Position numbers and translations under genes: made by a program. From a bacterium (GTDB taxonomy: Bacteria; Arandabacterota; Arandabacteria; Arandabacterales; Arandabacteraceae), in the NCBI GenBank assembly GCA_025774845.1, contig JALGZP010000001.1:25519-89518 (forward strand): a DNA stretch of 64,000 nt, in the 5' to 3' direction. A model generated the notes under the pieces. It did not search any database and had not been told where the DNA came from. It saw only the letters and a program-made list of their open reading frames with translations. Shown here in pieces: positions 11,832 to 58,149 of this stretch (its first letter is position 1; each line of letters opens with the position of its first letter).

Positions 11832-11955
11832 ACCTCCTTGTCGGTCTGGAGTGGACAGATACTACCCCACCCTGCATAGGGAGTCAAGCAAAGCCGCGTG
11901 TTATCGTATTGACGCGTCGGGAGGCGGCCTGATAGATTGGGCGGTGGTGCTTGCT

Positions 11956-19565: not shown

Positions 19566-19606
19566 GGGACTCGTTGAAGTGTGTTCGACCTCAAGGAGGT
19601 GTCTTT

Positions 19607-24585: not shown

Positions 24586-24607
24586 CGGCAGGAGGGAATT
24601 TCCGCAG

Positions 24608-33169: not shown

Positions 33170-36100
33170 ATGAAGCGTCGGCCGGCAATTGGACTACTGG
33201 TTTTGCTTGCGATCCTCTTTGCGGGGAGACCTGTGAATTCAGTGCCCCTGAGACCGGACATGCTCGAAAGGCTGCATAGCGAGGGCCAGGTGGACCGGGT
33301 CAGGCAGATGCTGGAGCTTGAACGGGCCGAGGAACCCATCGATCGAAATGTCATGACGGCCGGTTCGCTCAGGGCCCTGGTGCTGATGATCGACTTCGAC
33401 GACATGCCCGCCGATACGATCCTCCATTCCAAGCAGCACTTTCACGATATGCTCTTCAGCCTCGACAACGAGCTGAGCATGCGAAACTACTACCTCTGGA
33501 GTTCCTACGGGTCACTTGATATCACGGGCGAGATATACGGGTGGTTCAGAGTGAAAGAGCCACTCTCATACTACGCCAACAGCAATGCCGGTATGGATGT
33601 GTATCCCAGGAATGCTCAGAAGATGATTGAAGATGCCATCGATTCGGCAGATGCCTGGGTGGATTTCTCGCAGTATGACAATGACGGACCCGATGGCCTT
33701 CCCAACAGCGGCGACGACGACGGCTATGTCGATTTCCTCATGGTCGTCCATGCCGGGCAGGGCTACGAGCAGACGATGAACCCGGGGCACATCCATTCGC
33801 ACGTCTCCACGATCAGGGCCAGGCCGGTGGATGGTATACACGCCAGAATGTATTCCACCGAGCCTGAGGACGGCCCGGTGGGGACGTTTGCGCATGAACT
33901 CGGTCACCTGCTGGGATTACCAGACCTGTATGACATAACACTTAACACTTACGGGCTTGGGATGTGGTCGCTGATGTCTTATGGCTCCTGGGGTGAAGGG
34001 GGGCGCCGCCCGGTAGGATTTGACCCATGGTCGAAGACCCAACTGGGTTTCATCGAACCGGTTGTGATCGACAGCAACTACGTGGGGTACGAGCTCCCTT
34101 GTATTGAAGATGGACCGCACGCGCTGAAGATGTGGAGCGAAGGCGAGATGGGGCAGCAGTACTTCATGGTTGAGAACAGGAGAATGAAGGACTGGGATTC
34201 CTGGCTGAGTTGGTTTGATGAGGGGCTGCTTGTCTACCACGTTGATGAGAGATACAGAGACAATTCGAGCGATTCCAAGCACCTGATAAGTCTCGAGCAG
34301 GCGGATGGAAGGTTCGATCTTGAGCAGAGGAGGTTCTGGGGTTTCGGGTCGGATGGAGGAGATCCCTATCCGGGAGAGACCGGCAACAGAACATTCAGCT
34401 GGTGGACAACCCCGGACAATCAATCAAATGAGGGTAGCCCTACTCAGGTAAGTCTGCGGAACATCAGCGACCCCGGCGATGTTATGACATTCGATGTCGA
34501 AGTCTGGTCGCCTGTGATCCTCTTTGAAGATCACCAGATCGATGACGAATCGGGAGATGATGACGGTGAGCTCGACCCCGGTGAGGATATAAACCTGGGT
34601 CTAAGATTCAGGAACCGCGGCATAGCCTGTGAGGATATCACGGTCACTCTGCGGACGGATGATCCTCACATAAGCCCCGGTGAGGCTGTGGTTTCGCTTG
34701 AACTGATTCCGGGTGGTTCCGTCTCTGAGTTCTCGAGCGTATCCATACACATAGACGAAGACGTTCCCGAGCCCTACGATGTTGAGTTCGAGGTTTCAAT
34801 CGAGGGCGCTCATGCCTACGGGAGCTACCAATCCACGGATGGGTTCGTGCTTGGGGTCCCGGTGAGAAGATTGCAGGGCTGGCCAGTGACCGCCGGCGGC
34901 GGTATGACCGCTTCGCCGGCAGTGGCCGATCTGGATGACGACGGTGTTAAGGATATCATCGTCGGTAGCAATGACGGGTTGGTCTATGCCTGGAAGCGGG
35001 ATGGAACGCCTGTCCCCGGCTGGCCGGCGGTTGTCGGGGGTGCCGTGCAATCGAAACCTGCCGTCTGTGACATCGATCTGGATTTCAGATCCGAAGTGGT
35101 TGTGACCTCAAGAAACGGAACCGTACATGCGTTCGAGGATGACGGTACCCGGTGTCCGGGATGGCCCCGGTCTACCGGAGGCCAGATCCTGGCTTCCGCG
35201 ATGCTTGCCGACATTGATGACGACGGTATCGTGGAGATAATCTGTGGTTCGACGGACGGCCTTGTGTATGCATGGAACGAGAATGGTGATCTGGTCAATG
35301 GCTGGCCTGTCCATCTGGGCGGGTTCGAGATATGGATGTCCGCTGCTGCCGCCGATGTCGATGGCGATCACCTTGAAGAAGTCGTAATCGGTGCCTACGG
35401 TGGACCGCTGTATGTCATAGACGGGAACGGCCAAGTTCTCGACGGTTGGCCCTCACCGGTGGGGCGAGGTTGTGGCGACGGTTCGCCGTCCATCGCGGAC
35501 TTCGACGGCGACGGTAAACTCGAGATAGCGATTTCGGGTCTGTTCTCAAACTCGATCTACCTGGTTAGTCTGGAGGGCAAGGTGAGGCCCGGTTGGCCCA
35601 GATGGCCGTTCAACTGCCATGAACTCAGCAGCCCGGTTCCCGCAGACATCGACGACGATGGCCTGCCCGAGGTCGCGGTGTCGACTTCGTGCGGTACCAT
35701 AGTTGCATGGAATGCGAACGCTACCCAGTGCAACGTCATAGAGGCGGATGCTCCGGATCCCATCCTTCGATGTGAACCCATCTTCCTTGATATTGACGGC
35801 AATGGCAGCATCGAAGGACTGGTCGGTACTTCAGACTTCGGTGACGGCGAGGTATATGTTTTCGGAAGCGAAGGTGTGCTCACAGGATTTCCGATTGACG
35901 TCGGCGGGGAGATCGCGGCCACACCTGTGGTTGATGATCTCGATGGCGACGGCAATGCTGAGATAGTGGCTGCCACAAAGACTGGCCAGGTCTACGTATG
36001 GCGTTTCGTAGGTCCGAAGCAGACGGGAAGGATCGAGTACTCGCAGTCGAGGTCCAACATCTGGAATACAGGTCACTATGGTTTTGTTCCTCATGACAAC

Positions 36101-38290
36101 ATTCCGCTTGCCGATCTTGCCCTGACTGCAGATGACATATCGCTTGAGCCAGGTGAGCCGAAGGTAGGGGAGTTGACTCTCGTTCAGGTGAAGGTGGTAA
36201 ATGGGGGCCATGCCGTAGCTGAGGATTTCGTGGTCAGCGCCTACGACGGAATGGTGGCGGAATCTCATCTGATCGGATCGACCGTGGTGGCCGATCTGGC
36301 AGCGAAGTCTGACACCGTGATCGCTTTCGCATGGGAGATCCCGGGGGGTAAGGCGACACGTCTGGTCTACGCAACGCTTGATCCTGGGAATGTTGTGCTG
36401 GAGCGGTTCGAGCTCAATAACCAGGCGGACCAGCGGTTCTACCTGTCACTTGCCGATCTCGAAGTGACCATGGGCGATATACGGCCGTTCCCGGTGGTCA
36501 TTGGTGAGTCCCTGACTGTGGACGCTTACGTGGAGAACGTCGGTTCTGATGTTGCGAGGGACTTCGAGCTGGTGTTCTATGACAGCATCAGAATAGACTC
36601 CCGGCGCTTTGCAGGCTTTCAGGTGGACTCTCTTGGCCCGGGTGAAAGAATGGATTTCAGCGCCCGCCACAGTATCGATTCATTCAGGGGTGACTTCGTG
36701 CGACTCTGGGCCGCTGTCGATCCTGCCCAGAGGGTGCTGGAGTACCATACGAGCAACAACAACTCATCCGAAGACATCAACTCCGGAATCGGGGGCAGGC
36801 TGCTGATCACGCCGTATGAGATAGATGTCGCGGTCCTGAAGTCTTCGAGGACATGTATTGTGTTCGAGTCTCAGGCCTGTCAGTGTCTCGTTGCCTTGGG
36901 GACGGTTCATCCTTACAACGTGATGTTTGAGACCATTGGATCGGACATAGACGTATCGCGGAACACCATAGTCTTCAGCTCGGGGGGTGATATTGCCGGA
37001 TTCGATCTCAGGGACAGCCTCCTGTTCGTGATCAGTTCGTCTGAAGAATACGAAACACAGCCCGCGGTCTGGGGTGAGAACGTGGCGTGGATATCGGAAA
37101 GTCCTGAATCCACAAGTCTGAGGCTGAGGAAAGCCTCCGGCAACGTGGAGACCGTACGCAGCATAACGTCGGGCAGCATATGGAACCCTGATCTTTCAAA
37201 CGCTTTGATCGTCTGGGAAGAACACAATGGGGAAGGATCTGACATTCTGGGTTACGATCTTGAAGCCGACACCGTCGTGGTACTTTGTGATGACGATGGT
37301 GATCAGGTGAATCCTGCAGTGTGGGGTAACATGCTGGTCTGGGAGGATCAATCCGGCGACGGGGGTGATATCCGGGCACTCGATTTCGGATCGGCGTCGA
37401 GGCTGGATGTGGCTGCCGGAGATGGCTTGCAGCGACACCCGGTTGTGTACGGTGACATGGTGGTCTGGCAGGACTCCAGGAACGGCAACTGGGATATATA
37501 CGGTTACAGTTTCTTCAGCGGCAGCGAGTTTCCCATATCACGCCAGGTGGATGACCAGATACTTCCGTCCTTGAGTGACAGCACAGTGTTGTGGGTTGAC
37601 CGGCGGAACCCGACCGAGATCGTACTGGGTCTCAGATTCGGAGATGACCGCAGGGTCGCAAGCGTGAGGGAATTCGAGGCTCTCTCGCAGGATGGCATGA
37701 TCAAGGTTCGCTCAAATGTTGAACAGTGGGATGACGGCCTCATGTTCAACATCTATCGTTACCCGGATGATCGTCCGATGTCTGAGGACAGGTACACTCA
37801 CCTGCGTTACCAGTTCGAACTCGGCACCGACTCGGTCCATGTCTATGCCGACACGCTGGTCGCTGCCAGGAGATCATTTTACTATACCCTCGGTATAGTA
37901 GACGGTTACGGAGTGGAGACCTATTATGGACCTGTCGAGGGTAGGGCTCACGACCCGACTCCGTCCGACTTTGCAATCGGGGCTCCTCACCCGAATCCTT
38001 TCAGACACAATGTTACCGTAACTTTCGGCTTACCCAGGATGCTCAAGCGTTCCGGCGACTCATCATGGCCCGATCCCACCGAGGAGACAAGCAACGTTGA
38101 AATGGCGGTGTATTCCGCGGACGGTCGTCTTGTCAGGACAATCCAGGGGGGCCATCTTACTCCGGGTTACTACAGGCTCTCATGGGATGGCAGGAATGAA
38201 AGCGGCCGGCCCGTCAGTTCCGGAGTTTACTTCATCGCGGCCTCTGCCGGTGACGTTGTCTCCTCCCGTAAGGTCATCCTGGCCAAGTAG
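33170..38290 (+). CDS. Giant (1706 aa) multidomain surface protein: M6 (InhA-like) metalloprotease domain, FG-GAP/VCBS repeats, CARDB domains, beta-propeller, T9SS-type CTD
   Basis: Signal peptide. HELGHLLGLPDLYD zinc motif of the M6 family. Repeated DxDGDG...VVGS...G.VYAW FG-GAP repeats. CARDB-like segments (LVQVKVVNGGHAVAEDFVV). C-terminal CTD (MAVYSADGRLVRTIQ...GVYFIAASAGDVVSSRKVILAK). Confidence 0.75.
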   Translation: MKRRPAIGLLVLLAILFAGRPVNSVPLRPDMLERLHSEGQVDRVRQMLELERAEEPIDRNVMTAGSLRALVLMIDFDDMPADTILHSKQHFHDMLFSLDNELSMRNYYLWSSYGSLDITGEIYGWFRVKEPLSYYANSNAGMDVYPRNAQKMIEDAIDSADAWVDFSQYDNDGPDGLPNSGDDDGYVDFLMVVHAGQGYEQTMNPGHIHSHVSTIRARPVDGIHARMYSTEPEDGPVGTFAHELGHLLGLPDLYDITLNTYGLGMWSLMSYGSWGEGGRRPVGFDPWSKTQLGFIEPVVIDSNYVGYELPCIEDGPHALKMWSEGEMGQQYFMVENRRMKDWDSWLSWFDEGLLVYHVDERYRDNSSDSKHLISLEQADGRFDLEQRRFWGFGSDGGDPYPGETGNRTFSWWTTPDNQSNEGSPTQVSLRNISDPGDVMTFDVEVWSPVILFEDHQIDDESGDDDGELDPGEDINLGLRFRNRGIACEDITVTLRTDDPHISPGEAVVSLELIPGGSVSEFSSVSIHIDEDVPEPYDVEFEVSIEGAHAYGSYQSTDGFVLGVPVRRLQGWPVTAGGGMTASPAVADLDDDGVKDIIVGSNDGLVYAWKRDGTPVPGWPAVVGGAVQSKPAVCDIDLDFRSEVVVTSRNGTVHAFEDDGTRCPGWPRSTGGQILASAMLADIDDDGIVEIICGSTDGLVYAWNENGDLVNGWPVHLGGFEIWMSAAAADVDGDHLEEVVIGAYGGPLYVIDGNGQVLDGWPSPVGRGCGDGSPSIADFDGDGKLEIAISGLFSNSIYLVSLEGKVRPGWPRWPFNCHELSSPVPADIDDDGLPEVAVSTSCGTIVAWNANATQCNVIEADAPDPILRCEPIFLDIDGNGSIEGLVGTSDFGDGEVYVFGSEGVLTGFPIDVGGEIAATPVVDDLDGDGNAEIVAATKTGQVYVWRFVGPKQTGRIEYSQSRSNIWNTGHYGFVPHDNIPLADLALTADDISLEPGEPKVGELTLVQVKVVNGGHAVAEDFVVSAYDGMVAESHLIGSTVVADLAAKSDTVIAFAWEIPGGKATRLVYATLDPGNVVLERFELNNQADQRFYLSLADLEVTMGDIRPFPVVIGESLTVDAYVENVGSDVARDFELVFYDSIRIDSRRFAGFQVDSLGPGERMDFSARHSIDSFRGDFVRLWAAVDPAQRVLEYHTSNNNSSEDINSGIGGRLLITPYEIDVAVLKSSRTCIVFESQACQCLVALGTVHPYNVMFETIGSDIDVSRNTIVFSSGGDIAGFDLRDSLLFVISSSEEYETQPAVWGENVAWISESPESTSLRLRKASGNVETVRSITSGSIWNPDLSNALIVWEEHNGEGSDILGYDLEADTVVVLCDDDGDQVNPAVWGNMLVWEDQSGDGGDIRALDFGSASRLDVAAGDGLQRHPVVYGDMVVWQDSRNGNWDIYGYSFFSGSEFPISRQVDDQILPSLSDSTVLWVDRRNPTEIVLGLRFGDDRRVASVREFEALSQDGMIKVRSNVEQWDDGLMFNIYRYPDDRPMSEDRYTHLRYQFELGTDSVHVYADTLVAARRSFYYTLGIVDGYGVETYYGPVEGRAHDPTPSDFAIGAPHPNPFRHNVTVTFGLPRMLKRSGDSSWPDPTEETSNVEMAVYSADGRLVRTIQGGHLTPGYYRLSWDGRNESGRPVSSGVYFIAASAGDVVSSRKVILAK

Positions 38291-43826: not shown

Positions 43827-44402
43827 ATGGGTGCATTGACTGAAATAAGATGGCATGGAAGAGGAGGGCAGGGTGCCAAGACCGCTTCATTCCTGCTTGC
43901 CGAGTCGCTCATAGACCAGGGCAAGTTCGCACAGGGCTTCCCTGACTACGGACCGGAGCGCATGGGTGCCCCTATAAGGGGATACAACAGGATAAGCGAC
44001 GAACCCGTGAGTCTCCACTGTGACGTGGCTGCTCCCGGGATCGTGGTTGTCCTGGATCCGACCCTGATCGGTTCTGATGACATCACGGGTGGATTGCTCA
44101 AAGACGGTACGGTGCTGGTCAACTCACCGAGTGGTGCGCGGGAGATCAGGAAAGAGCTCGGTCTTGAGGGTGGCAGAGTGTTTACGGTGGATGCGACGGG
44201 GATCGCTCTTGATGAGATCGGCAGACCCATACCGAACCTCCCCATGATAGGTGCGCTCTTAAAGGTCACCGATCTGGCGGACATAGAAAGCATGACGTCA
44301 ATTGTACGCAAGAAGTTTGAAGGTAAATTCACAAAGCCGATTATCGACGGCAACGTCAAAGCTATGAAAAGAGCCTATGAGGAGGTAAAAGCAGAGAAAT
44401 GA
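43827..44402 (+). CDS. porG: 2-oxoacid (pyruvate):ferredoxin oxidoreductase, gamma subunit
   Basis: IRWHGRGGQGAKTASFLLAE...GAREIRKEL. GAGGAGG ribosome-binding site upstream. Confidence 0.85.
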   Translation: MGALTEIRWHGRGGQGAKTASFLLAESLIDQGKFAQGFPDYGPERMGAPIRGYNRISDEPVSLHCDVAAPGIVVVLDPTLIGSDDITGGLLKDGTVLVNSPSGAREIRKELGLEGGRVFTVDATGIALDEIGRPIPNLPMIGALLKVTDLADIESMTSIVRKKFEGKFTKPIIDGNVKAMKRAYEEVKAEK

Positions 44403-44707
44403 AGAAGAAGGGGTGGAAGGAACTAGCGATTGGCGGACGAATAGATGAGGCGGGTTGCGCCGCACAGTATGAAACCGGTTCGTGGCGCACCTTCAGACCC
44501 GTCAGGGACGAGGAAAAATGTACCGACTGTCTCAGGTGCTGGATCTACTGCCCTGATTCTGCGATAAAGGTTGAGGACGGCAAGATAGTCGGCCTCGATC
44601 TCGATCACTGCAAGGGCTGCGGCATTTGTGCCGAGGTCTGCCCACCGAAAATACACGCGATCGAGATGATCCAGGAAGCCGAATTGAAACAGAAGGAGCA
44701 TGAGTGA
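44399..44707 (+). CDS. porD: 2-oxoacid:ferredoxin oxidoreductase, delta (ferredoxin) subunit
   Basis: Two [4Fe-4S] motifs, CTDCLRCWIYCP and CKGCGICAEVCP. Confidence 0.85.
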   Translation: MKKKGWKELAIGGRIDEAGCAAQYETGSWRTFRPVRDEEKCTDCLRCWIYCPDSAIKVEDGKIVGLDLDHCKGCGICAEVCPPKIHAIEMIQEAELKQKEHE

Positions 44708-45900
44708 TGAAAACCATTGCCGAGAAGACGGTGATAGCACTCACCGGTAACGATGCCGTTGCGGAGGCGATGAGGCAGGTCAATCCGGATGTCGTAGCCG
44801 CCTATCCGATAACGCCCCAGACAGAGCTCATGCACAAGTTTGCCGACTTTGTTTCTGACGGCTGGGTCAAGACCGAGTTCGTGCTCGTGGAAAGCGAGCA
44901 CAGTGCGATGAGCGCCGCCGTAGGCGCCTCGGCCGCGGGCGCAAGGGTAATGACTGCCACATCGGCCAACGGGCTGGCCCTGATGTGGGAGATTCTCTAC
45001 ATAGCGGCTTCCACGCGTTGCCCGATAGTGATGGGGGTCGTAAACCGCGCTCTCAGCGCACCCATAAACATCCACTGCGACCACAGCGATTCGATGGGTG
45101 CGAGAGATGCGGGCTGGATACACCTGCATTCAGAGAACTCACAGGAAGCATACGATAACGCCGTGCAGGCTGTTAGAATCGCCGAGAACAGGGACATCCT
45201 GCTGCCGGTGATGGTCTGCCTCGACGGGTTCATCCTGAGCCATACGCTTGAGCCGGTTGAGCTCCTAAAAGACGCGACCGTCCAGAACTTCATCGGGGAT
45301 TATAAGCCCGTACACGAGCTTTTGAATACCGACAAACCGATGACGTTCGGACCCCTGGATTTCCATGATTTCTACTTCGAACACAAGATACCCCAGATAG
45401 AAGCAATGAAGAAAGCACCGGAGGTGATCAAAAGCGTTGCCGCCGAATTCGGCGAGCTTTCCGGACGGCACTACGGCCTGATTGAGCGTTACTTCACCGA
45501 TGATGCCGAGCGCATTATAGTCGCAATCGGCTCAACATGCGGGACGACTAAGGCGGTCGTCGACAAGCTCAGAGCCGGGGGCGAGAAAGTGGGGCTCTTG
45601 AAGATAAGGAGCTTCAGACCGTTTCCGTATGCTGAGGTCAGAGAGGCGCTTTCGGGTGCACGAGCGGTCGGGGTGCTCGACAGATCACATTCGTTCGGTG
45701 CGCAGGGCGGGCCGGTGCTGATCGAGATAAGGGCTGCCCTTTACCATCACGCCGATGTCCCCATCAAAGGGTATATCTATGGTCTCGGTGGACGTGATAT
45801 GGGCACAGCACATATCGAGCATGCATTCGAACAATTAAAGGTACTGGTCTCCAGCGGCAAGAGCTCGGATGAGATCGGTTTTCTGGGTGTGAGGGAATAG
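44704..45900 (+). CDS. porA: 2-oxoacid:ferredoxin oxidoreductase, alpha subunit
   Basis: LTGNDAVAEAMRQVNPDVVAAYPITPQTE... over 398 aa. Confidence 0.85.
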   Translation: MMKTIAEKTVIALTGNDAVAEAMRQVNPDVVAAYPITPQTELMHKFADFVSDGWVKTEFVLVESEHSAMSAAVGASAAGARVMTATSANGLALMWEILYIAASTRCPIVMGVVNRALSAPINIHCDHSDSMGARDAGWIHLHSENSQEAYDNAVQAVRIAENRDILLPVMVCLDGFILSHTLEPVELLKDATVQNFIGDYKPVHELLNTDKPMTFGPLDFHDFYFEHKIPQIEAMKKAPEVIKSVAAEFGELSGRHYGLIERYFTDDAERIIVAIGSTCGTTKAVVDKLRAGGEKVGLLKIRSFRPFPYAEVREALSGARAVGVLDRSHSFGAQGGPVLIEIRAALYHHADVPIKGYIYGLGGRDMGTAHIEHAFEQLKVLVSSGKSSDEIGFLGVRE

Positions 45901-45912
45901 GAGGTTTTTCAA

Positions 45913-46872
45913 GTGGCAAGTCTAAAAGAGCTTTCCAAGCGAGAAGATCTTCTCACCGGGGGTCACAGGGCCTGTGCGGGGTGTGCCGCGACCATCGTCG
46001 CGCGCCAGGTGTTGCTGGCTGCGGGAAAAGACGTGGTCGTTGGCTGTGCCACCGGGTGTCTCGAAGTTGTCACAACGATCTTTCCCTACACCGCGTGGAA
46101 GGTACCCTATATACACAATGCCTTCGAGAACGTGGCGTCCTCCGTCAGTGGAGTCGAGTCGGCCTACAAGTCGCTCAAGCGCCAGGGCAAGATCACCAAG
46201 GAGATGAAGTTCATCGCCTTCGCCGGTGACGGTGGTACATACGATATCGGGCTCCAGGCGCTTTCGGGGATGGCCGAGCGAGGACACCGGATACTATACA
46301 TCTGCTATGACAATGAAGCGTACATGAATACCGGTATCCAGCGTTCGAGCGCTACACCCATCGGGGCGGCGACATCCACATGCCCGGCGGGTGATGAGAT
46401 CCCCGGCAAGGCCCAGTATCACAAGGACATGACGAAGATCATGGCCGCCCACAGGATCCCTTACGTCGCTCAGGCTTCGCCGAGTAACTATGCGGATCTC
46501 ATGCGCAAGGTTGAGAAGGCCCTTTCAAAGGACGGTCCGAGCTTCATCAACATCATGTCGCCCTGCCACAGGGGCTGGCGTTACCCGATGGAAAAGACGA
46601 TCGAAATCGCAAGGCTGGCCGTGGAGACCTGTTTCTGGCCGCTCTATGAGTGTGATGAAGGCGCTTGGAAGATAACCTATACGCCCAAAGAGAAACTTCC
46701 TCTGAGCGAATTCACGGACAAGCAGGGCAGGTTCGATCATCTCAAGAAGAACCCGGAGTTACTCCAGGCCGGACAGGATGAAATCGATCGGCGCTGGCGT
46801 GAACTCCAGGCGCTTTCGGGTATCGGCAATCTCTGTGAGGTTGCATGCGACGAGCGTAAGGATAACAATTGA
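45913..46872 (+). CDS. porB: 2-oxoacid:ferredoxin oxidoreductase, beta (thiamine-pyrophosphate-binding) subunit
   Basis: GHRACAGCAATIVARQVL...AFAGDGGTYDIGLQALSG. GTG start. Confidence 0.85.
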   Translation: MASLKELSKREDLLTGGHRACAGCAATIVARQVLLAAGKDVVVGCATGCLEVVTTIFPYTAWKVPYIHNAFENVASSVSGVESAYKSLKRQGKITKEMKFIAFAGDGGTYDIGLQALSGMAERGHRILYICYDNEAYMNTGIQRSSATPIGAATSTCPAGDEIPGKAQYHKDMTKIMAAHRIPYVAQASPSNYADLMRKVEKALSKDGPSFINIMSPCHRGWRYPMEKTIEIARLAVETCFWPLYECDEGAWKITYTPKEKLPLSEFTDKQGRFDHLKKNPELLQAGQDEIDRRWRELQALSGIGNLCEVACDERKDNN

Positions 46873-47348
46873 GAAGGAGCCCCGCCGATAGTCTGGCTGT
46901 GGCGGTCGGCACCGGCGTCTATTCCGGTTACTTCCCTTTCTTTCCGGGCACTGTAGGCAGTGCTGTCGGGATCGTGCTATACCTCGTGCTCGTCCGGTCG
47001 GGTTTGCTCACGCAGAGTTTCTCAGCGGCCTGGGTTGTCACGCTGGGCGTCGTCTTCGTAGCGGGTGTTCTCTCCGCCCACCGGTGCGAGACCATCTTTG
47101 GTCACGACAACAAACGCATCGTGATCGATGAGGTGTGGGGCATGTTGATTTCACTCTTCATGCTGCCCGTATCCTGGTGGTGGATGCTATGGGCGTTCCT
47201 GATCTTCCGGTTTCTCGACATAGTCAAACCTTTTCCGGCGCGGCGGGTTGAGCGCACGGGCGGTGGCGTCGCGATCATGCTGGATGACGGCATAGCAGCG
47301 GCGTATACCGTTCTTATCCTCCAGATTCTAAGAACCGTTCTTGGGTGA
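46869..47348 (+). CDS. pgpA: Phosphatidylglycerophosphatase A
   Basis: GTGVYSGYFPFFPGTVGS...IVIDEVWGM...FRFLDIVKPFP. Confidence 0.85.
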   Translation: MRRSPADSLAVAVGTGVYSGYFPFFPGTVGSAVGIVLYLVLVRSGLLTQSFSAAWVVTLGVVFVAGVLSAHRCETIFGHDNKRIVIDEVWGMLISLFMLPVSWWWMLWAFLIFRFLDIVKPFPARRVERTGGGVAIMLDDGIAAAYTVLILQILRTVLG

Positions 47349-50251: not shown

Positions 50252-50917
50252 ATGACCCGGTGTCAGGCTACACCCACGGTGTCCGCGGTGGAGAAAGTCC
50301 CTCGCAAGAAGGAGTATCTTCTCAGGCTTTCGGACGGCTCCACGATAAGGGTTCTTGAAGAGCACCTGACGCGTTCTGGACTTGAAGAAGGATGTCCGGT
50401 AGATGAGGATACGAGACGGGAGGTCGCCGACTCGTATGAGTACGCCACTGCGAGGGGGATCGCGCTCCGGCTCTTGAAGACGCGGCCGCGAACAGAGGAG
50501 GAATTGAAGCGACGTTTCCGAAAGGCTGATCTGAGGGTGAAAATCTGTGAACGGGTGCTGGATGATCTCAAGGCCGATGGGCATGTGGACGATCGAGTGT
50601 TCGCGCAACTCTGGGTCAAGGAGAAGATCGGTAGGGGCGGCTCAGGCAGGCGGCGTATCTCAAGCGAATTGAGATCGAAGGGGATCGACAGGACAATAGT
50701 TGAAGAAGAGATCGCCAGGAATTACGATGACAGGCAGGAGGTCGAAATAGCGACGCGGCTTGCGCTCAGGCGACTGGGCAGGCTGAAATCTCTGCCCGCT
50801 GGTGTGGCAAGACGGCGGCTCTACGGTCTTCTCCTGAGGCGCGGTTTCCAGGCCGATGTTGCATCAGCCGCACTCGAGGCAGCTCTTGAATCGGTAAGCA
50901 GGGAAGAGACGACATGA
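50252..50917 (+). CDS. recX: RecA regulator RecX
   Basis: Three-helix repeats typical of RecX. The ATG lies 1 nt after the recA stop, and the stop overlaps the alaS start (ATGA). Confidence 0.8.
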   Translation: MTRCQATPTVSAVEKVPRKKEYLLRLSDGSTIRVLEEHLTRSGLEEGCPVDEDTRREVADSYEYATARGIALRLLKTRPRTEEELKRRFRKADLRVKICERVLDDLKADGHVDDRVFAQLWVKEKIGRGGSGRRRISSELRSKGIDRTIVEEEIARNYDDRQEVEIATRLALRRLGRLKSLPAGVARRRLYGLLLRRGFQADVASAALEAALESVSREETT

Positions 50918-53508
50918 AATCGGATGAGCTTCGCAGATTGTTTTTGGAGTTCTTCAAGGAACGGGGTCATACCGTTGTGCCGAGCGCCTCGCTCGTGCCT
51001 GAGGGCGATCCCACGCTTCTGTTCAATATTGCGGGCATGGTCCAGTTCAAACAGTTCTATGCGTCCAAGGGGGAGATCCCGTTTACAAGAACCGCTTCGG
51101 TCCAGAAGTGCTTGAGGGCTACGGATCTTGAAGAGGTCGGCCGCACGATCAAGCACCATACCTTTTTTGAGATGCTCGGGAATTTCTCCTTCGGCGACTA
51201 CTTCAAGGAAGAGGCGATCGACTGGGCATGGGAATTCCTCACGGTGGTACTCGGGATAGATCCGGAGCGGCTTCATGTCTCGGTCTTCCGGGATGATGAC
51301 GAGAGCGAGAAGTTGTGGGCAGGGCGGATCGGTGTACCGATGAATCGCATCTACCGTCTGGATGAGTGTGATAACTTCTGGGGTCCCGCGGGTCTTACGG
51401 GTGCATGCGGACCCTGTTCGGAGATCCACTACGATCTTGGCGAAGACATGGGCTGCGGGAAACCGGACTGCACGCCCGCATGTGACTGCGACCGCTTCGT
51501 AGAAGTCTGGAACCTCGTGTTCCCACAGTTCTACCAGGCAGAAGACGGCAGCCGCGGGCCGCTAGAGCGGAGGGGTGTCGATACCGGCATGGGGCTTGAG
51601 CGCCTGGCCATGGTTTGCCAGGGGGTTAAGTCTACCTATGAGACCGATCTCCTCAAGCCCATACGCGACTTTGTGCTGGAGGAAGCCGGTCTTGAGAGTG
51701 TGGATGCGATCCAGGAGGTCGGTGCCCGTGTGATCTCCGATCATGCGAGGGCGCTCTGCTTCGCCATATGCGAGGGAGTGCTCCCGTCCAATGAGGGCCG
51801 TGGATATGTCATCAGGCGCATCCTGCGCCGGGCCGTCGTAAAGGCGCTGGAGCTCGGTATCGAGGAAGCTTTCCTCTTTAAGGTGGTCGGCAGGGTGATT
51901 GACGCGATGCTCAACGCCTACCCCGAGATCGCCGAGAACCGCGAGAAAATCGCACTCATTGTCAAGAGGGATGAGCAGCGCTTCCAGAGGACGTTGGCGC
52001 GCGGGATGGCGATCTTTAAGGATACCCTGGGTGATATGGCAGCCAGGGGAGAAAAGACGATTTCGGGGGAGACGGTTTTTAAGCTCTACGATACGTATGG
52101 CTTCCCGGTTGAGATCACGCAGGAGCTCGCGGAGAATCACGGGCTTGCCGTCGATCTCGATGCTTTTGAAAGCGAGATGCAAAAACAGCGCGACCGTGCG
52201 AGGCAGGCGAGCCGGATCGGGGTGGAGGACGGGATCGCCGAAGAGGTGATACGGGCGCCCGATAACTTCGTCGGCTACGACAACCTCGAAGTCCCGACCG
52301 TTGTATCATCGGTAACCGGTGAGGGTGAGGAGTTCGTAGTCGAGCTCGAGCAGACACCGTTCTACCCCGAGGGTGGGGGGCAGGTCGGGGACGTCGGGAC
52401 CCTGGTCGGAAACACCGGCAGAGGTACGGTCAAGGAAGTCAGATGGCTGGGTGGAAGCAAGATCGCGCACCGCGTCGTCGTGACCAAAGGAAGTCTCAAA
52501 GCCGGTGAGGGTGTTGTTGCGAGAGTGGATATCGGAAGGAGAAAATCAAGCCAGCGGAACCACACGGCGACCCACCTTCTACATTCAGCACTTCGCTCCG
52601 TCCTCGGCGGGCACGTGCGGCAGTCGGGTTCGCTGGTTGCCCCGGATAGACTACGTTTCGATTTCACGCACTACGAACCGCTGTCCGAGGAGGATGTCTC
52701 TGCTATAGAGGATATCGTGAACAGCCGGGTTCTTGACAACATCCCCGTCAGGGCTTCCATGGAAGCATTTGAAGATGCAAAAGCAAGGGGCGCCATAGCG
52801 CTGTTCGGTGAGAAATACGGACAGCAGGTCAGGATGATAGATATCGAGCAGACGAGTTGCGAGCTCTGTGGCGGGACCCATGTCAGGTCAACGGGTGAGA
52901 TAGGTGGATTCAGGATACTGTCCGAATCCGGAATCGCGGCCGGTGTGCGGAGGATCGAGGCCGCAACAGGTGAGGCTGCGATCTCAATCGGCAGGGATGC
53001 AACAAGAGAGCTTGAACACATAGCGTCGATTCTCAAAGTACCGGTCCATGATCTTGGTGACGGGGCACGCAAGACCATAGAAAAGGTCAAAGCACTCGAG
53101 AAGGAGATCTCGGAGCTCAGGCAACGGCTGGCCGGAAGTGAGGTCGACGACATACTCGCTGGTGTCAAGGATATCGATGGCATCAAGGTTGTGGGTGCAA
53201 GGGTCGATGCTCCAAGCGTCGAGATCCTCAAGCACCTGACCGATAAGATAAAGGAACGGCTGCCGGATGGTGTCGTCTGCGTTGGCAGTGCGGTGGGGGA
53301 CAGGGCGATCATCGTCGTGGGAGTCGACCCTGCAATTGCCAGGGAGAAGGGCGTCAAGGCGTCGCTCATAGCCAAGAAGCTCGGGGAGATGGTGGGTGGA
53401 AAGGGTGGAGGCAAGGATACGTTCGCCCAAGCGGGCGGCAAGAACGTGGACAAGCTGAATGCCACGCTTGAGCAGTGTGCGGAGGTGGTAGCAGGTCTTG
53501 TCAAATAG
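50914..53508 (+). CDS. alaS: Alanine--tRNA ligase
   Basis: LRRLFLEFFKERGHTVVPSASLVPEGDPTLLFNIAGMVQFK...full 864-aa class II alanyl-tRNA synthetase with editing and C-Ala domains. Confidence 0.95.
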   Translation: MKSDELRRLFLEFFKERGHTVVPSASLVPEGDPTLLFNIAGMVQFKQFYASKGEIPFTRTASVQKCLRATDLEEVGRTIKHHTFFEMLGNFSFGDYFKEEAIDWAWEFLTVVLGIDPERLHVSVFRDDDESEKLWAGRIGVPMNRIYRLDECDNFWGPAGLTGACGPCSEIHYDLGEDMGCGKPDCTPACDCDRFVEVWNLVFPQFYQAEDGSRGPLERRGVDTGMGLERLAMVCQGVKSTYETDLLKPIRDFVLEEAGLESVDAIQEVGARVISDHARALCFAICEGVLPSNEGRGYVIRRILRRAVVKALELGIEEAFLFKVVGRVIDAMLNAYPEIAENREKIALIVKRDEQRFQRTLARGMAIFKDTLGDMAARGEKTISGETVFKLYDTYGFPVEITQELAENHGLAVDLDAFESEMQKQRDRARQASRIGVEDGIAEEVIRAPDNFVGYDNLEVPTVVSSVTGEGEEFVVELEQTPFYPEGGGQVGDVGTLVGNTGRGTVKEVRWLGGSKIAHRVVVTKGSLKAGEGVVARVDIGRRKSSQRNHTATHLLHSALRSVLGGHVRQSGSLVAPDRLRFDFTHYEPLSEEDVSAIEDIVNSRVLDNIPVRASMEAFEDAKARGAIALFGEKYGQQVRMIDIEQTSCELCGGTHVRSTGEIGGFRILSESGIAAGVRRIEAATGEAAISIGRDATRELEHIASILKVPVHDLGDGARKTIEKVKALEKEISELRQRLAGSEVDDILAGVKDIDGIKVVGARVDAPSVEILKHLTDKIKERLPDGVVCVGSAVGDRAIIVVGVDPAIAREKGVKASLIAKKLGEMVGGKGGGKDTFAQAGGKNVDKLNATLEQCAEVVAGLVK

Positions 53509-53698
53509 CGAGCCGCGAGACCGGGATATCAACATCAAGTGCGTCTGGACCTGCGGACTCTGCAGTGCCGTATGCCGCGACAGGGCGATTTCTTACATGC
53601 CGGAATCCGTAGAAGTGGATAGATCCATCTGCTCGGGTTGTCTTGTTTGTGTCAAGGTATGCCCGGCCGGCATCCTGGAGGACGAGACCTTTGCGTGA
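53498..53698 (+). CDS. Small (66 aa) 2x[4Fe-4S]-type ferredoxin, with an atypical first cluster motif
   Basis: CVWTCGLCSAVC (Cx3Cx2Cx3C) and CSGCLVCVKVCP. TTG start overlapping the alaS stop. The 3' end overlaps the TTG start of the reductase gene by 8 nt. Confidence 0.6.
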   Translation: MSNSEPRDRDINIKCVWTCGLCSAVCRDRAISYMPESVEVDRSICSGCLVCVKVCPAGILEDETFA

Positions 53699-54869
53699 TT
53701 TCGATGTCGTCGTAGTCGGTGGTGGCTGTTCGGGTCTGTGGGCGGCGAGGGCGGCAGCCATGAGTGGTGTAAGCACGCTGCTCATTGAGAGAACCGCACG
53801 CATCGGCGAGCATATCGTATGTGCGGAGGGTGTGGGAACCGACGGTATGACGGATCTGCTGGAACTTGAACCCGAATGGATAGCCACAACCATACACGGG
53901 GGGAAACTGTCTGCTCCCGGGGAGAAAATCGTAGAGTTCACGGAGCGGGGATGCGGTTACGTGCTCAACAAGAGGAACTTCCTTCACGGGCTTTCACGTA
54001 TGGCTGGAGAGGCCGGTGTCGAGATGTGGCTGGGGACCCGGGCGACCACTGTGAGGCCGCTCGACTCCGGTGGTGTCCGGATTGAGGTCGAAGCACCGGG
54101 CCGAACCCGGACCATCACGGCCGGAGCGGTGGTTGCTGCCGACGGTGTTGAATCTTTGATAGCAAGGCAGGTCGGGATACGTGACTGCCTCCGGCCTGAA
54201 GAACTCTTCTCTTGCGCACAATACACGGTAACCCGGATCGACGTTGACCCGCATACGGTAGAATTCCACTTTGGAAGGGAGATTTCTCCCGGTGGATATG
54301 CCTGGGTCTTCCCAAAGGGTGATTCAGTTGCCAACGTCGGTGTCGGTGTCATCCCGGGTGTGGCCGGTGACCGTAAGCCCATCGAATATCTTGAGACGTT
54401 CAAGCAGTGTCGCTGTCCCTCTTCGAATATAATCAGTCACGTGGTGGGAGGCGTACCGACGGTCAAGGACCCGTCCAGGGCGTCAAAGTCAGGAGTCTTC
54501 CTGGCCGGCGACGCCGCCGGGATCACCGATCCGGTCTCGGGTGCGGGAATCGTGCCGGGTATGGAGTCGGGAGCCGTGGCCGGTGAGTATGCGGCCAGGT
54601 ATGCGGCGAAGGAGAGCGATGGGCGTGCCCTGGAAAAGGAGTTCGCCGGGAGTCTCAAATCGCTTCTCAAGGACCGGCGTATCAGGTACGCTGTCAGAAA
54701 GGTGCTATCCAAAATGGATGATAAGGAACTCGCAAGGATGATCGATGCGACCGGTGAGTACCTTGCCGGTGGCAAAACGATAAGGGGCGATCCGTTCCGG
54801 CTTGTGAGATTCCTGGTCAAGGTCATGCCGAACACATTTGGGCTTATCAAACACATTGTGAGGGTCTGA
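53691..54869 (+). CDS. Geranylgeranyl reductase-family FAD-dependent oxidoreductase (digeranylgeranylglycerophospholipid reductase-like)
   Basis: FDVVVVGGGCSGLWAARAAA (FAD-binding)...GVFLAGDAAGITDPVSGAGI, the geranylgeranyl reductase family signature (TIGR02032-like). Confidence 0.8.
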   Translation: MRDFDVVVVGGGCSGLWAARAAAMSGVSTLLIERTARIGEHIVCAEGVGTDGMTDLLELEPEWIATTIHGGKLSAPGEKIVEFTERGCGYVLNKRNFLHGLSRMAGEAGVEMWLGTRATTVRPLDSGGVRIEVEAPGRTRTITAGAVVAADGVESLIARQVGIRDCLRPEELFSCAQYTVTRIDVDPHTVEFHFGREISPGGYAWVFPKGDSVANVGVGVIPGVAGDRKPIEYLETFKQCRCPSSNIISHVVGGVPTVKDPSRASKSGVFLAGDAAGITDPVSGAGIVPGMESGAVAGEYAARYAAKESDGRALEKEFAGSLKSLLKDRRIRYAVRKVLSKMDDKELARMIDATGEYLAGGKTIRGDPFRLVRFLVKVMPNTFGLIKHIVRV

Positions 54870-54870
54870 G

Positions 54871-55614
54871 GTGAACAGAGTATACGAGAGCATGCTGAAG
54901 ATGGCTGACGCCAAGGGGGCCGGATACGTGGTCCTTCTCGATCCGGACAAGTACTCTGCTTCGGAGCTGGCCGATCAGGCAGAGATGATAAGCACGTATG
55001 CAGATCTCATCTTTGTCGGCGGAAGTCTGTGCGTGAGACACGATTTCGGGGAAGCCGTCAGAAGTATCAAGGCCGCCTCGAGTGTGCCCGTCGTCATTTT
55101 CCCCGGCGATGCGACCCAGGTGTCCTCACATGCGGACGCACTACTCTTCCTTTCCCTGGTGAGCTCACGGAATCCCGATCTCCTGATAGGCGAACACGTG
55201 AAGGCAGCTCCGGTGATCCACCGTCACGGTCTCGAGGTAATCCCGGTAGCCTATATGCTGGTCGAATCCGGACAGACAACATCGGTCCAGTTCATGAGCC
55301 AGTCCCTTGCGATTCCGAGGGGCAAACCCGAGATAGCGATGGCCCATGCCCTGGCCGGTCAGTATCTGGGAATGAAGCTCGTGTTTCTTGAAGCGGGAAG
55401 CGGTGCGGACCGGCATGTACCTGTCGAGATGGTTCAGGCCGTAAGCGACTATGTCTCCATCCCGGTGATCGTAGGAGGGGGAATAAAGACTCCCGACGAT
55501 GCCAATCGGATTGCCCGGGCCGGTGCGTCCTTCGTTGTAACAGGTGATGTCATAGAGAAGAGCGGTAACGCTGAGACACTTAAAGGATTCACTGCTGCGG
55601 TTCATTCAGCATGA
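54871..55614 (+). CDS. Geranylgeranylglyceryl phosphate synthase (GGGPS) / PcrB-family prenyltransferase (G1P-specific TIM barrel)
   Basis: VVLLDPDK...FVGGSLCV...LSLVSSRNPDLLIGEH...VFLEAGSG...VGGGIKTPDDANRIARAGASFVVTGD aligns with conserved PcrB/GGGPS blocks. GTG start 1 nt after the geranylgeranyl reductase stop. Confidence 0.8.
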   Translation: MNRVYESMLKMADAKGAGYVVLLDPDKYSASELADQAEMISTYADLIFVGGSLCVRHDFGEAVRSIKAASSVPVVIFPGDATQVSSHADALLFLSLVSSRNPDLLIGEHVKAAPVIHRHGLEVIPVAYMLVESGQTTSVQFMSQSLAIPRGKPEIAMAHALAGQYLGMKLVFLEAGSGADRHVPVEMVQAVSDYVSIPVIVGGGIKTPDDANRIARAGASFVVTGDVIEKSGNAETLKGFTAAVHSA

Positions 55615-55627
55615 ACGTGGAAAGGAG

Positions 55628-56701
55628 TTGGTCGATACGAAAGCCCTAATCCTGAGCGGCGGCAAAGGTACCAGATTACGTCCCATAACTCACACGAGTG
55701 CCAAGCAGCTCGTGCCGGTTGCCAACAAACCCATTCTCTTCTACGGGATCGAGGCCATACGTGAGGCAGGCATAACCGACATCGGTATTATCGTCGGGGA
55801 CACTGCAGGCGAGATCAAGACTGCCGTCGGTGATGGCAGCAAGTTCGGGGTGACGACTACCTACATCCAGCAGGAAGCCCCGCTGGGACTTGCTCATGCG
55901 GTGAAGATAGCGCAGGATTTTGTTGGGAAGGACCGTTTCATAGTCTATCTCGGAGATAACCTCATAATCGACGGAATCAAGGACTTTGTTCACAGGTTCG
56001 AGGCCAATTCGCCCGACTGCCAGATACTGCTTGCGCATGTACCGAATCCCGAGAACTTCGGTGTGGCCGAGCTGTCGGGCGACAGGGTCGTGAAGCTTGT
56101 TGAGAAACCCAAACAACCCAAGACCGATCTCGCCCTGGTCGGAGTCTACATGTTCGATGAGAGCGTTTTCGAGGCGACCGATAATATAAAGCCGTCATGG
56201 CGTGATGAGCTTGAGATAACCGACGCCATCCAGTATCTGATCGAGAAAGGTTCCGATGTGCAGTTTCAGATAATAGGCGGTTGGTGGAAAGACACCGGAA
56301 AGCTCGAGGACATGCTTGAGGCGAACCGGATGCTGCTTGAGCGGCTTACGACCAGGATCGACGGCGAGGTCGACGACAAATGCAAGATGGATGGGGTCGT
56401 GATCGTGGAGAAGGGAGCTAAGATCACGAACTGCACGCTCCGGGGACCGCTCGTTATAGGTGAGGGTGCGACGATAACCGATTCATACATTGGTCCGTTT
56501 ACATCGATCAACTACGGCGTCGAGATCCGCGGTAGCGAGATCGAGCACAGCATAGTGCTTGAGAACAGCCGGATCGTCAACGTTGGTGGAAGAATCGAGA
56601 GCAGTCTTGTCGGCAAGAACGTTCTGATCGAGAAACGTGCGAAGCCACCCAGGGCATACAGGTTTATGGTGGGCGACTACGGTCAGATCGAGCTTCAATA
56701 G
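55628..56701 (+). CDS. rfbA: Glucose-1-phosphate thymidylyltransferase (long form with a C-terminal left-handed beta-helix)
   Basis: KALILSGGKGTRLRPITHTSAKQLVPVANKPIL...C-terminal hexapeptide-repeat region. AAAGGAG ribosome-binding site at 55621-27, TTG start. Confidence 0.85.
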   Translation: MVDTKALILSGGKGTRLRPITHTSAKQLVPVANKPILFYGIEAIREAGITDIGIIVGDTAGEIKTAVGDGSKFGVTTTYIQQEAPLGLAHAVKIAQDFVGKDRFIVYLGDNLIIDGIKDFVHRFEANSPDCQILLAHVPNPENFGVAELSGDRVVKLVEKPKQPKTDLALVGVYMFDESVFEATDNIKPSWRDELEITDAIQYLIEKGSDVQFQIIGGWWKDTGKLEDMLEANRMLLERLTTRIDGEVDDKCKMDGVVIVEKGAKITNCTLRGPLVIGEGATITDSYIGPFTSINYGVEIRGSEIEHSIVLENSRIVNVGGRIESSLVGKNVLIEKRAKPPRAYRFMVGDYGQIELQ

Positions 56702-56710
56702 GGAGGTTTG

Positions 56711-57577
56711 ATGCTGAGAATACTCGTCACCGGCGCCAGGGGCATGCTTGGGTCCGACATGTGCGAAGTGCTTGGATCCGACTACGAAGTCACACCATAC
56801 GACATTGAGGACTTCGACATTGTCGATCTGGAGCCCACACAAAAAGCAGTACGAGAGGTGTCCCCGCAGGTGATAATCCACCTCGCAGCTTTTACGGATG
56901 TGGAAGCGTGCGAAGACGAACTTGAAAGAGCTCTGGGTGTCAATTCCGTGGGTGCGATGAACATTGCGATGGCCGCGTCCGAGGCCGAAGCCTATCTTGT
57001 CTACCTCAGCACCGACTACGTGTTCGACGGCGCAAAGGGTGAGCCCTACATCGAGACCGATGTGCCCAGTCCCATCAATCATTACGGTCTTTCAAAGCTT
57101 CGGGGTGAGCGCCACGTCCAGGAGCTTGTCAGCAAACACCTCATCATAAGAACCTCGTGGCTTTTCGGTCCCAACGGCAAGAATTTCATCGATACCATAG
57201 TTGCACGAGCGTCCGGTGGTGCCGTGCTCAAGGTCGTAAATGATCAACGCGGCTCGCCCACCTATTCACTGGATCTGGCGCGGGGCATACGGCAGGCATT
57301 CGAGCGCAAGGTCGAGGGTGTGCTCCACATGACGAATACGGGTGTTGCCACGTGGTTTGACGTGGCGTCTTATGCCATCGGGCTCGCAGGTATCGAGACG
57401 GATATAACTGCCATACCCGGTTCGGAGTATCCGACCAGGGCGAAACGACCGCCATACTCGGTGCTCGGAAGCGCCGTGGCTGAGGCGGCCGGCATTGACG
57501 CTCTGCCTCATTGGCGGGAGGGTGTTAAGCATCATCTCCGGAGAAAGAACCTGCTTAAGGAAGGGGCGGCCAGGTGA
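56711..57577 (+). CDS. rfbD: dTDP-4-dehydrorhamnose reductase
   Basis: ILVTGARGMLG...YLSTDYVFDG...YGLSKLRGE. Confidence 0.85.
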   Translation: MLRILVTGARGMLGSDMCEVLGSDYEVTPYDIEDFDIVDLEPTQKAVREVSPQVIIHLAAFTDVEACEDELERALGVNSVGAMNIAMAASEAEAYLVYLSTDYVFDGAKGEPYIETDVPSPINHYGLSKLRGERHVQELVSKHLIIRTSWLFGPNGKNFIDTIVARASGGAVLKVVNDQRGSPTYSLDLARGIRQAFERKVEGVLHMTNTGVATWFDVASYAIGLAGIETDITAIPGSEYPTRAKRPPYSVLGSAVAEAAGIDALPHWREGVKHHLRRKNLLKEGAAR

Positions 57578-58149
57578 CAGACAGAGACTGGATCAGTGAT
57601 TCACTGAAAGCTGCAAGTGAGGTCTTCGCCGAAACCGCGGGGTCATGCCGGGATGAGATTGCGGCGGCGAGTGCCGCTGCGGCTGATTGCATAAAGGCCG
57701 GGGGGAAGCTCATGCTCTGCGGCAACGGGGGGAGCGCGGCCGATGCCCAGCACATCGCTGCTGAGATGACGGTCAAGATGAAGCGGGTGAGATCGCCGCT
57801 GGCGGCAATTGCTCTAACCACCAACACATCCCTTCTTACGGCGCAGGCGAATGATCTTGGCTTCGATACAGTCTTTTCTCGGCAGATTGAATCTCTCGGC
57901 CGTGAAGGCGACGTGCTTATCGCCATCAGCACAAGCGGGAACTCACCAAACATCCTGCGGGGGGCTCAAACAGCTAGAGGTATGGGAATCAAGGTTGTTG
58001 GTCTTACCGGCCGTGACGGAGGCAAACTGGCTCCTATGTCCGATATCGCAATCTCAGTTCCTTCAGACGACGTCCCCCGGATACAGGAGGCCCACATCGC
58101 AATCGGCCACCTCATCTGCGAATTCACCGAATCCCAGTGTGCCCGGTAG
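57574..58149 (+). CDS. gmhA: Phosphoheptose (sedoheptulose-7-phosphate) isomerase, SIS domain
   Basis: KLMLCGNGGSAADAQHIAAEM...VLIAISTSGNSPNIL. GTG start. Confidence 0.85.
   Translation: MTDRDWISDSLKAASEVFAETAGSCRDEIAAASAAAADCIKAGGKLMLCGNGGSAADAQHIAAEMTVKMKRVRSPLAAIALTTNTSLLTAQANDLGFDTVFSRQIESLGREGDVLIAISTSGNSPNILRGAQTARGMGIKVVGLTGRDGGKLAPMSDIAISVPSDDVPRIQEAHIAIGHLICEFTESQCAR

Follow-up and report, generated by a model that had tools for sequence, protein, structure and literature searches.

A 64,000-nucleotide stretch of contig JALGZP010000001.1 (the window; positions are counted from its first letter), from an uncultured bacterium assigned here to Candidatus Eisenbacteria, carries three adjoining genes, for a small ferredoxin, a geranylgeranyl reductase (GGR) and a geranylgeranylglyceryl phosphate synthase (GGGPS). 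On the sequence evidence these probably form a functional sub-cluster for the synthesis of a C20 isoprenoid glyceryl-phosphate ether, saturated in full or in part. In the proposed mechanism, the group II synthase, as its family and residues suggest, would join geranylgeranyl diphosphate (GGPP) to glycerol phosphate through an ether bond. The FAD-dependent GGR, as its family and invariant catalytic motifs suggest, would hydrogenate the double bonds of the isoprenoid. The 66-aa ferredoxin, predicted to hold two clusters, would feed low-potential electrons to the GGR flavin, a role suggested by homology and gene overlap in a methanogen and by gene fusions in two bacterial lineages. More speculatively, reduced ferredoxin might be supplied by a 2-oxoacid:ferredoxin oxidoreductase (PFOR) encoded upstream.

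All three open reading frames (ORFs) lie head to tail on the forward (+) strand. The ferredoxin gene (53498..53698, TTG start, TGA at 53696-53698) overlaps by 11 nt the stop codon (53506-53508) of alaS, the upstream boundary gene (50914..53508, +), which was read as an ORF and whose counterparts in orthologous loci match Pfam tRNA-synt_2c. The GGR gene (53691..54869, 392 aa, in-frame TTG, TGA at 54867-54869) shares its first 8 nt with the end of the ferredoxin gene, and the GGGPS gene (54871..55614, 247 aa) starts at a GTG 1 nt past the GGR TGA. A GGAGG/GAGGG-like sequence could be read 6-12 nt 5' of each of the three starts. The longest ORF for GGR opens at 53643; the TTG at 53691 gives a protein that begins just ahead of the FAD GxGxxG motif, and the NCBI gene call in the closest metagenome-assembled genome (MAG) has the same 392-aa form. 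A JGI call that is 100% identical to GGR (P0121) has 369 aa, with an internal Met start and without the FAD GxGxxG motif. Because GGR has a TTG start, P0121 is too short through an annotation error.

The ORF list and the sequence agree with an earlier note on this DNA as to the coordinates of the ferredoxin, GGR and GGGPS genes, their 8-nt overlap and their 1-nt gap. The flanking genes that it named were also correct by profile score, with alaS on the 5' side and rmlA-long, rmlD and a gmhA-like SIS gene on the 3' side. Its family claims were borne out by profile searches with PF01884, TIGR01769 and TIGR02032, all above curated cut-offs, and judged by these matches and that of the ferredoxin to Fer4 the family assignments of all three proteins are far from chance. 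Among named genomes, the closest is a Candidatus Eisenbacteria MAG (L005), in which GGGPS, GGR and ferredoxin are 94%, 83% and 76% identical, respectively. Farther GGGPS homologues were found in TA06, Zixibacteria, Latescibacterota, Marinimicrobia, Gemmatimonadota and Edwardsbacteria.

Hidden Markov model (HMM) scores and PDB match scores were used to place the synthase and the reductase in sub-families. GGGPS scored 145 bits against PF01884 (cut-off 23.9), 206 bits against TIGR01769 (cut-off 161.55) and 283.1 bits against NF003198 (cut-off 247). Among PDB entries it matched the group II enzymes of Flavobacterium (4JEJ, 171.6 bits), Methanothermobacter (4MM1, 169.7 bits) and Thermoplasma (6JO3, 157.8 bits), compared with 34.9 bits for the group I enzyme of A. 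fulgidus (2F6U) and about 23.5 for the PcrB structures 3VZX and 1VIZ. A heptaprenyl PcrB identity was ruled out by these low structure scores and by a score of 27.4 bits against the heptaprenyl-PcrB model NF003197 (cut-off 260). The window synthase is, by these scores, assigned as a genuine group II GGGPS. It keeps the catalytic E174 and Y128, D24 of the DPD motif, and the phosphate loops EAGSGA (GSG) and VGGGI (GGG); the equivalent of Y128 is found in 152 of 153 family representatives. Bacterial group II GGGPS enzymes make geranylgeranylglyceryl phosphate (PMC7852524).

GGR scored 203.8 bits against TIGR02032 (cut-off 158.8) and 83.1 bits against GGR_cat (PF22578, cut-off 27). Among PDB entries, 3OZ2 came first (163.8 bits), a digeranylgeranylglycerophospholipid reductase of Thermoplasma. 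The motifs G10xGxxG15, C44, Y203xWxFP208 and G273D274 are invariant across 108 GGR homologues. Scores against the archaeal digeranylgeranylglycerophospholipid reductase models NF041160, NF041080 and NF041385, which are lineage-specific, were 172, 118 and 54.7 bits, below the cut-offs of 780, 580 and 700. Identity with ChlP/BchP or MenJ was ruled out by scores far under the cut-offs of TIGR02023, TIGR02028 and NF045655 (99.5, 62.5 and 52.7 bits against 343, 505 and 700). The reductase is accordingly classed, on model and structure scores, as a predicted GGR of the archaeal-lipid (euryarchaeal) type. The earlier note had named in advance two placements that would speak against its proposal, the synthase within heptaprenyl PcrB and the reductase within ChlP or MenJ; by model and PDB scores, both proteins lie outside those families.

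The ferredoxin has eight cysteines and is of a predicted 2x[4Fe-4S] type; it matches PF00037 (Fer4) with E = 4e-9, and matches Fer4_7 over residues 14-59. Its first cluster motif is CxxxCxxCxxxC (C15, C19, C22, C26) without Pro, and its second is the canonical CxxCxxCxxxCP (C45, C48, C51, C55); all eight cysteines are kept in 14 orthologues. In E. coli, GGR of Methanosarcina acetivorans depends on a neighbour-encoded ferredoxin for its function (Isobe 2014, as summarised in PMC9385802), and ferredoxin-GGR synteny is common in Euryarchaeota (PMC9385802). At a Methanosarcinales locus (L085), the start of GGR lies 4 nt inside the gene for a 57-aa ferredoxin. This protein aligned end to end with the window ferredoxin, with 49% identity over 43 aa (E = 5e-12), and the L085 GGR is 39% identical to that of the window. 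For M. acetivorans and L085 taken together, GGR identity is about 39-41%. The window resembles M. acetivorans and L085 in having a small ferredoxin gene, of predicted 2x[4Fe-4S] type, at the GGR junction, but its host is bacterial, its first cluster motif is one residue longer and lacks the Pro, and its GGGPS gene directly follows GGR, which is not so in L085. Two bacterial fusions were also found. In a Latescibacteria MAG (P0233, 487 aa, L086:6001-7464) a di-cluster ferredoxin domain is fused N-terminally to GGR, with GGGPS not adjacent, and a second Fer4::GGR fusion of 474 aa is encoded at locus L039. From the Methanosarcinales overlap and homology and the fusions in Latescibacteria and L039, we infer that ferredoxin and GGR form a functional unit, in which the ferredoxin would be the partner of GGR in the window organism. 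The suggestion of a methanogen-type partner in the earlier note is supported by homology and by the coupled gene pair of L085.

The presence of GGR near GGGPS was surveyed by tblastn in 84 fetched loci. The order ferredoxin-GGR-GGGPS was found in every related locus (L001-L017, GGGPS at least 62% identical) with enough upstream sequence, and it was kept while identity dropped to 39% for GGR and to 62% for GGGPS. No GGR was detected within 10 kb of GGGPS in more than 60 other loci of the Fibrobacteres-Chlorobi-Bacteroidetes (FCB) group, including a second Eisenbacteria clade. GGGPS is directly preceded by alaS in 41 of 66 FCB loci and by GGR in 14, and the array pgpA-cinA-ligT-recA-recX-alaS-GGGPS-(rmlA-rmlD)-gmhA is common to Eisenbacteria, Latescibacterota, Zixibacteria and Edwardsbacteria. 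In the window clade, the ferredoxin-GGR pair stands exactly at the alaS/GGGPS junction. Judged from gene order, the alaS-GGGPS adjacency is ancestral across FCB phyla, and the simplest reading is that a ferredoxin-GGR cassette was inserted at this junction. GC content is flat, at 0.55-0.60, across 49-60 kb, so the insertion would not be recent; a recent horizontal import of the pair was ruled out by the flat GC content and by the presence of the pair throughout the clade.

GGR and GGGPS also adjoin elsewhere. In TA06 bacterium SM23_40 (L018) the two genes are adjacent with no alaS upstream and no ferredoxin; a candidate ferredoxin upstream of this GGR was rejected, as it proved to be an N-terminal extension of the ORF without Cys motifs. 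At L039 (7718-10750, contig CAZMCH010000001.1) a DGGGPS-like UbiA gene (DGGGPS, digeranylgeranylglyceryl phosphate synthase), the Fer4::GGR fusion and GGGPS stand in a row beside a GspD secretin gene. The UbiA protein scored 245 bits against NF009521 (cut-off 296), well above every other UbiA class, and its homologues are labelled Candidatus Poribacteria. Like the window, L039 has the same three predicted activities, encoded in the order ferredoxin, GGR, GGGPS, in a Gram-negative host. It differs in the fusion of ferredoxin to GGR, the DGGGPS-type UbiA gene immediately upstream, the usual Tyr in GGGPS and an unrelated context. This cassette, in a non-FCB bacterium, is more complete as an archaeal core-lipid cassette than that of the window, and no literature on it was found. 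Adjacency of GGGPS to GGR, with or without ferredoxin, was therefore seen in three separate contexts: the window clade, TA06 L018 and the Poribacteria-type L039. That the pairing recurs in contexts unrelated to one another is the strongest sign at hand of GGR and GGGPS acting in one pathway.

Several observations weigh against the proposed function, beginning with the acceptor pocket of GGGPS. Two Tyr and one Glu of GGGPS are described as strictly conserved and as serving G1P (sn-glycerol-1-phosphate) stereospecificity and catalysis, and the beta8 phosphate loop carries Thr, or Asn in group I (PMC9385802). Pocket positions were located by reference to AfE167 (Glu), AfY124 (first Tyr), AfY165/MtY178 (second Tyr) and AfN216 (Thr/Asn). 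The second Tyr is Phe172 in the window GGGPS (VFLEAGSGA), a position at which about 150 family representatives have Tyr in 140 cases and Phe in 11. The beta8 position is Asp226 (VVTGDV), where the same set has N in 75, T in 57, S in 8 and D in 3. The two residues covary over 87 FCB sequences, of which 22 combine F with D/E, 63 combine Y with N/S/T/G and one combines Y with D. Among the 150 family representatives, the F+D pair was restricted to the window's own, Eisenbacteria-type cluster; its carriers are Eisenbacteria-type sequences and one Zixibacteria sequence. The pair is present in the second Eisenbacteria clade, which has no adjacent GGR, and so is not tied to the ferredoxin-GGR-GGGPS cluster. 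The change from Tyr to Phe alone is probably tolerated, since it recurs across the GGGPS family. The combination of Phe172 and Asp226 nevertheless lowers confidence in a strictly G1P acceptor, and the residues suggest that the enzyme may use a non-G1P acceptor or have an altered activity. If the acceptor had shifted to sn-glycerol-3-phosphate (G3P), the isomer that these bacteria would make in the absence of a G1P dehydrogenase, or to another compound, the ferredoxin-GGR pair would yield saturated isoprenoid ethers on a bacterial-type backbone, a possibility that we consider quite improbable. The earlier description of the product as G1P-based is not supported: no G1P dehydrogenase (G1PDH) lies in the window, Phe occupies the position of a Tyr implicated in G1P stereospecificity, and the phosphate loop carries a rare Asp.

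The remaining points against the proposal concern the chain, the reductase and the spacing of the genes. The C20 chain specificity of the window GGGPS would follow solely from that of characterised enzymes that are 45-50% identical. GGRs are promiscuous (PMC9385802), so the physiological substrate of this one could be another prenyl compound. Spacing is a weak sign of a dedicated operon, since tight junctions run throughout an array of 16 co-directional genes, from the PFOR gamma subunit gene (43827) to gmhA (58149), which extends over about 14 kb with no gap of more than 20 nt. A scan of 48-60 kb for consensus promoters and terminators gave counts no higher than in shuffled sequences, with nothing inside the cluster, and so says little about transcription units. 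Co-transcription of ferredoxin, GGR and GGGPS is likely, but a stand-alone three-gene operon is not supported; the "one operon" of the earlier note is embedded in a larger gap-free array. The same tight junctions, together with GGR promiscuity, the existence of GGR-family paralogues with non-lipid roles (PMC10821996, PMC9385802) and the absence of a GGR within 10 kb in most GGGPS-bearing FCB genomes, would fit an incidental adjacency, in which ferredoxin and GGR saturate another prenyl compound such as the menaquinone side chain, a polyprenol or phytyl diphosphate. Against this stand the placement of the pair exactly at the alaS/GGGPS junction, the finding of this adjacency in two further, unrelated contexts, of which one includes a DGGGPS-like gene, and MenJ/ChlP scores of 52-99 bits against cut-offs of 343-700. 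An incidental adjacency is therefore regarded as very unlikely, and a shared role for the three genes in making an isoprenoid glyceryl-phosphate ether is preferred.

The rest of an archaeal lipid pathway was sought in the 64-kb window among ORFs of at least 150 aa with Pfam or NCBIfam models. No UbiA protein (DGGGPS), G1PDH of the iron-containing alcohol dehydrogenase (Fe-ADH) type, CarS or polyprenyl/GGPP synthase was found, and tblastn of the window with two UbiA types gave no match. Relatives have a UbiA gene between the gmhA-like gene and ispE, about 4 kb beyond GGGPS on the 3' side (L003:14347-15240, L004:13736-14608, with equivalents in L007, L010-L012, L014, L016, L019, L042 and L054); it is not in the window. 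The relatives' UbiA scored 278 bits against NF008977, named "decaprenyl-phosphate phosphoribosyltransferase" (cut-off 234), and 25-33 bits against DGGGPS models, so by model score it is not of the DGGGPS type. The NF008977 name is an odd assignment for FCB bacteria.

These results bear on the possibility of a full archaeal-type pathway, in which a DGGGPS encoded elsewhere, followed by CdsA, PgsA and PgpA, would lead to saturated G1P archaeol phospholipids beside fatty-acid lipids. Such a pathway would have precedents in Candidatus Cloacimonetes, whose GGGPS and DGGGPS gave phosphatidylglycerol (PG)-archaeol in E. coli and in which CarS and G1PDH were not detected (PMC7852524), and in the complete DGGGPS-like, Fd::GGR and GGGPS cassette of L039. 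The presence of pgpA in the same array and the activity of 3OZ2, the top structural match of GGR, on diether phospholipids would also be consistent with it. The pathway genes missing from the 64 kb, the NF008977-type UbiA of relatives and the doubt that the Phe172/Asp226 pocket casts on G1P specificity argue the other way. The top 120 homologues of the L039 DGGGPS-like query are of the Poribacteria type and none bears the Eisenbacteria label, a weak point that is not evidence of absence. We regard the full pathway as possible but rather doubtful, and the same findings (no DGGGPS, CarS or GGPP synthase in 64 kb, and a UbiA in relatives that passes NF008977 and not the DGGGPS models) do not justify the term "mixed" for the membrane, which the earlier note had used.

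The neighbouring genes were considered next to the sub-cluster itself. At the head of the array lie the genes of the four-subunit PFOR (gamma, delta, alpha, beta; 43827..46872, +; PF01558, PF01855/PF17147, PF02775), whose delta subunit ORF (44399-44707) has two CxxCxxCxxxCP motifs. By genomic context, this enzyme is a candidate low-potential electron source. It is followed by pgpA, for phosphatidylglycerophosphatase A (46869..47348, +; PF04608, 126 bits), which lies in the same array in relatives and is, as genomic context, the sole other lipid-related gene in the window. On the 3' side, rmlA-long, rmlD and the gmhA-like SIS gene (55628..58149, +) scored 489 bits against TIGR01208, 286 bits against TIGR01214 and 193.7 bits against TIGR00441, respectively, the last slightly under its cut-off of 209.45. 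The gaps from GGGPS to rmlA-long and from rmlA-long to rmlD are 13 nt and 6 nt, followed by a 4-nt overlap with the gmhA-like gene (57574-58149). In 37 of 57 loci, from several phyla, a gmhA-like gene follows GGGPS within 3 kb, which is more persistent than expected for an unrelated gene. A polysaccharide cluster takes the place of the relatives' UbiA gene after gmhA in L001, L005 and the window.

A functional link of GGGPS with the rmlA, rmlD and gmhA-like genes is possible. It would suit a monoether end product or glycolipid anchor, that is, a saturated phytanyl-glyceryl phosphate that is processed further, as heptaprenylglyceryl phosphate is in Bacillus, or an envelope-glycan anchor or carrier made with the rmlA, rmlD, gmhA-like and PRK12324-type UbiA genes. 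Beyond the recurrence of gmhA-like genes, rmlA is found within the same distance downstream of GGGPS in 18 of the 57 loci, and TA06 L018 retains GGR-GGGPS-rmlA-rmlD-gmhA despite its different upstream context. The phosphoribosyl-transferase-like type of the relatives' nearby UbiA, the lack of a DGGGPS in the window and the bacterial PcrB product, which is not a bulk lipid (PMC9385802), point the same way. The neighbourhood may, however, be inherited housekeeping synteny (recA, alaS, ispE, prs) and functionally meaningless; a glycosyltransferase beside GGGPS is not conserved, and the UbiA model's NCBIfam name has probably been applied too widely. A monoether or anchor of this kind is judged unlikely.

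Other features of the window lie outside this array. A four-gene run at 14925-19382 encodes an aldehyde:ferredoxin oxidoreductase, a B12-binding radical SAM enzyme, a DUF4416 protein and an EamA transporter. A bacterial archaeo-eukaryotic release-factor-like domain protein (baeRF family 10), followed by an ABC ATPase, is encoded at 24551-25723. Three secreted-looking proteins with a C-terminal FlgD_ig domain (2642-5215, 8863-9984 and 33170-38290) are an LVIVD-repeat protein, a glutaminyl cyclase and a 1706-aa M6 peptidase/FG-GAP/CARDB protein; FlgD_ig, common to all three, may serve in C-terminal sorting or anchoring. Neither of the long ORFs 11704-12849 (381 aa) and 19574-21022 (482 aa) matched a Pfam model at E <= 1e-3. 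The former overlaps the end of an opposite-strand acyl-CoA dehydrogenase gene by about 130 nt and may be no real gene.

Homologues of GGGPS and DGGGPS have been shown in FCB bacteria (Villanueva et al. 2021, ISME J, PMC7852524). MAGs of Cloacimonetes, the closest reported case, have Euryarchaeota-like GGRs, and the PG-archaeol that their GGGPS and DGGGPS gave in E. coli was unsaturated (PMC7852524). Both cases join, in an FCB bacterium, a GGGPS of group II with a GGR like those of Euryarchaeota, against a normal bacterial background, and in neither was a G1PDH or CarS detected, for the window within its 64 kb. The window differs in that GGGPS lies beside DGGGPS there, as reported for that phylum only, whereas the window GGGPS lies beside ferredoxin and GGR with no DGGGPS nearby. 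The same report does not mention a ferredoxin/GGR linkage or list Eisenbacteria among its phyla (PMC7852524). Activity was shown experimentally for Cloacimonetes and is predicted for the window cluster. Bacillus PcrB shares the Pfam family PF01884, a bacterial host and a monoether product rather than a bulk lipid, and so offers a model for a monoether end product, but it falls in group Ib, with a C35 substrate. The best structural-sequence match was 4JEJ, the group IIb GGGPS of Flavobacterium johnsoniae (Peterhoff et al. 2014). It shares with the window enzyme the TIM-barrel family, the DPD motif, Tyr128, Glu174 and the phosphate loops, and differs in having Tyr where the window has Phe172 and Thr where it has Asp226.

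A full-text search, whose coverage was incomplete and which is no proof of novelty, found no paper tying Eisenbacteria or Poribacteria to such a cluster. As the earlier note had proposed, the arrangement is not a textbook one, since a linkage of GGGPS, reductase and ferredoxin was found nowhere in the searchable literature. What is new is the phylum, the gene arrangement and the pocket signature; the parts themselves and the underlying idea were already known.

Whether natural bacteria make archaeal-type lipids is central to the "lipid divide" debate on early membrane evolution, and the genetic case for it has so far rested mainly on Ca. Cloacimonetes. The locus described here adds another FCB phylum, Eisenbacteria, and is, as far as the literature search shows, the first bacterial GGGPS physically linked to a chain-saturating enzyme and its putative dedicated electron donor. 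It also shows an evolutionary pattern, a ferredoxin-GGR cassette within an ancestral alaS-GGGPS junction. Phe172 and Asp226 provide a mutable handle on which glycerol-phosphate isomer is used by bacteria that lack G1PDH; if true, a G3P-using GGGPS would make a natural lipid that crosses the lipid divide in its chain chemistry and not in its stereochemistry. The compact three-gene unit lends itself to direct expression in GGPP-producing E. coli. Strains engineered for archaeal lipids require a working pair of GGR and ferredoxin, and a bacterial pair may do better.

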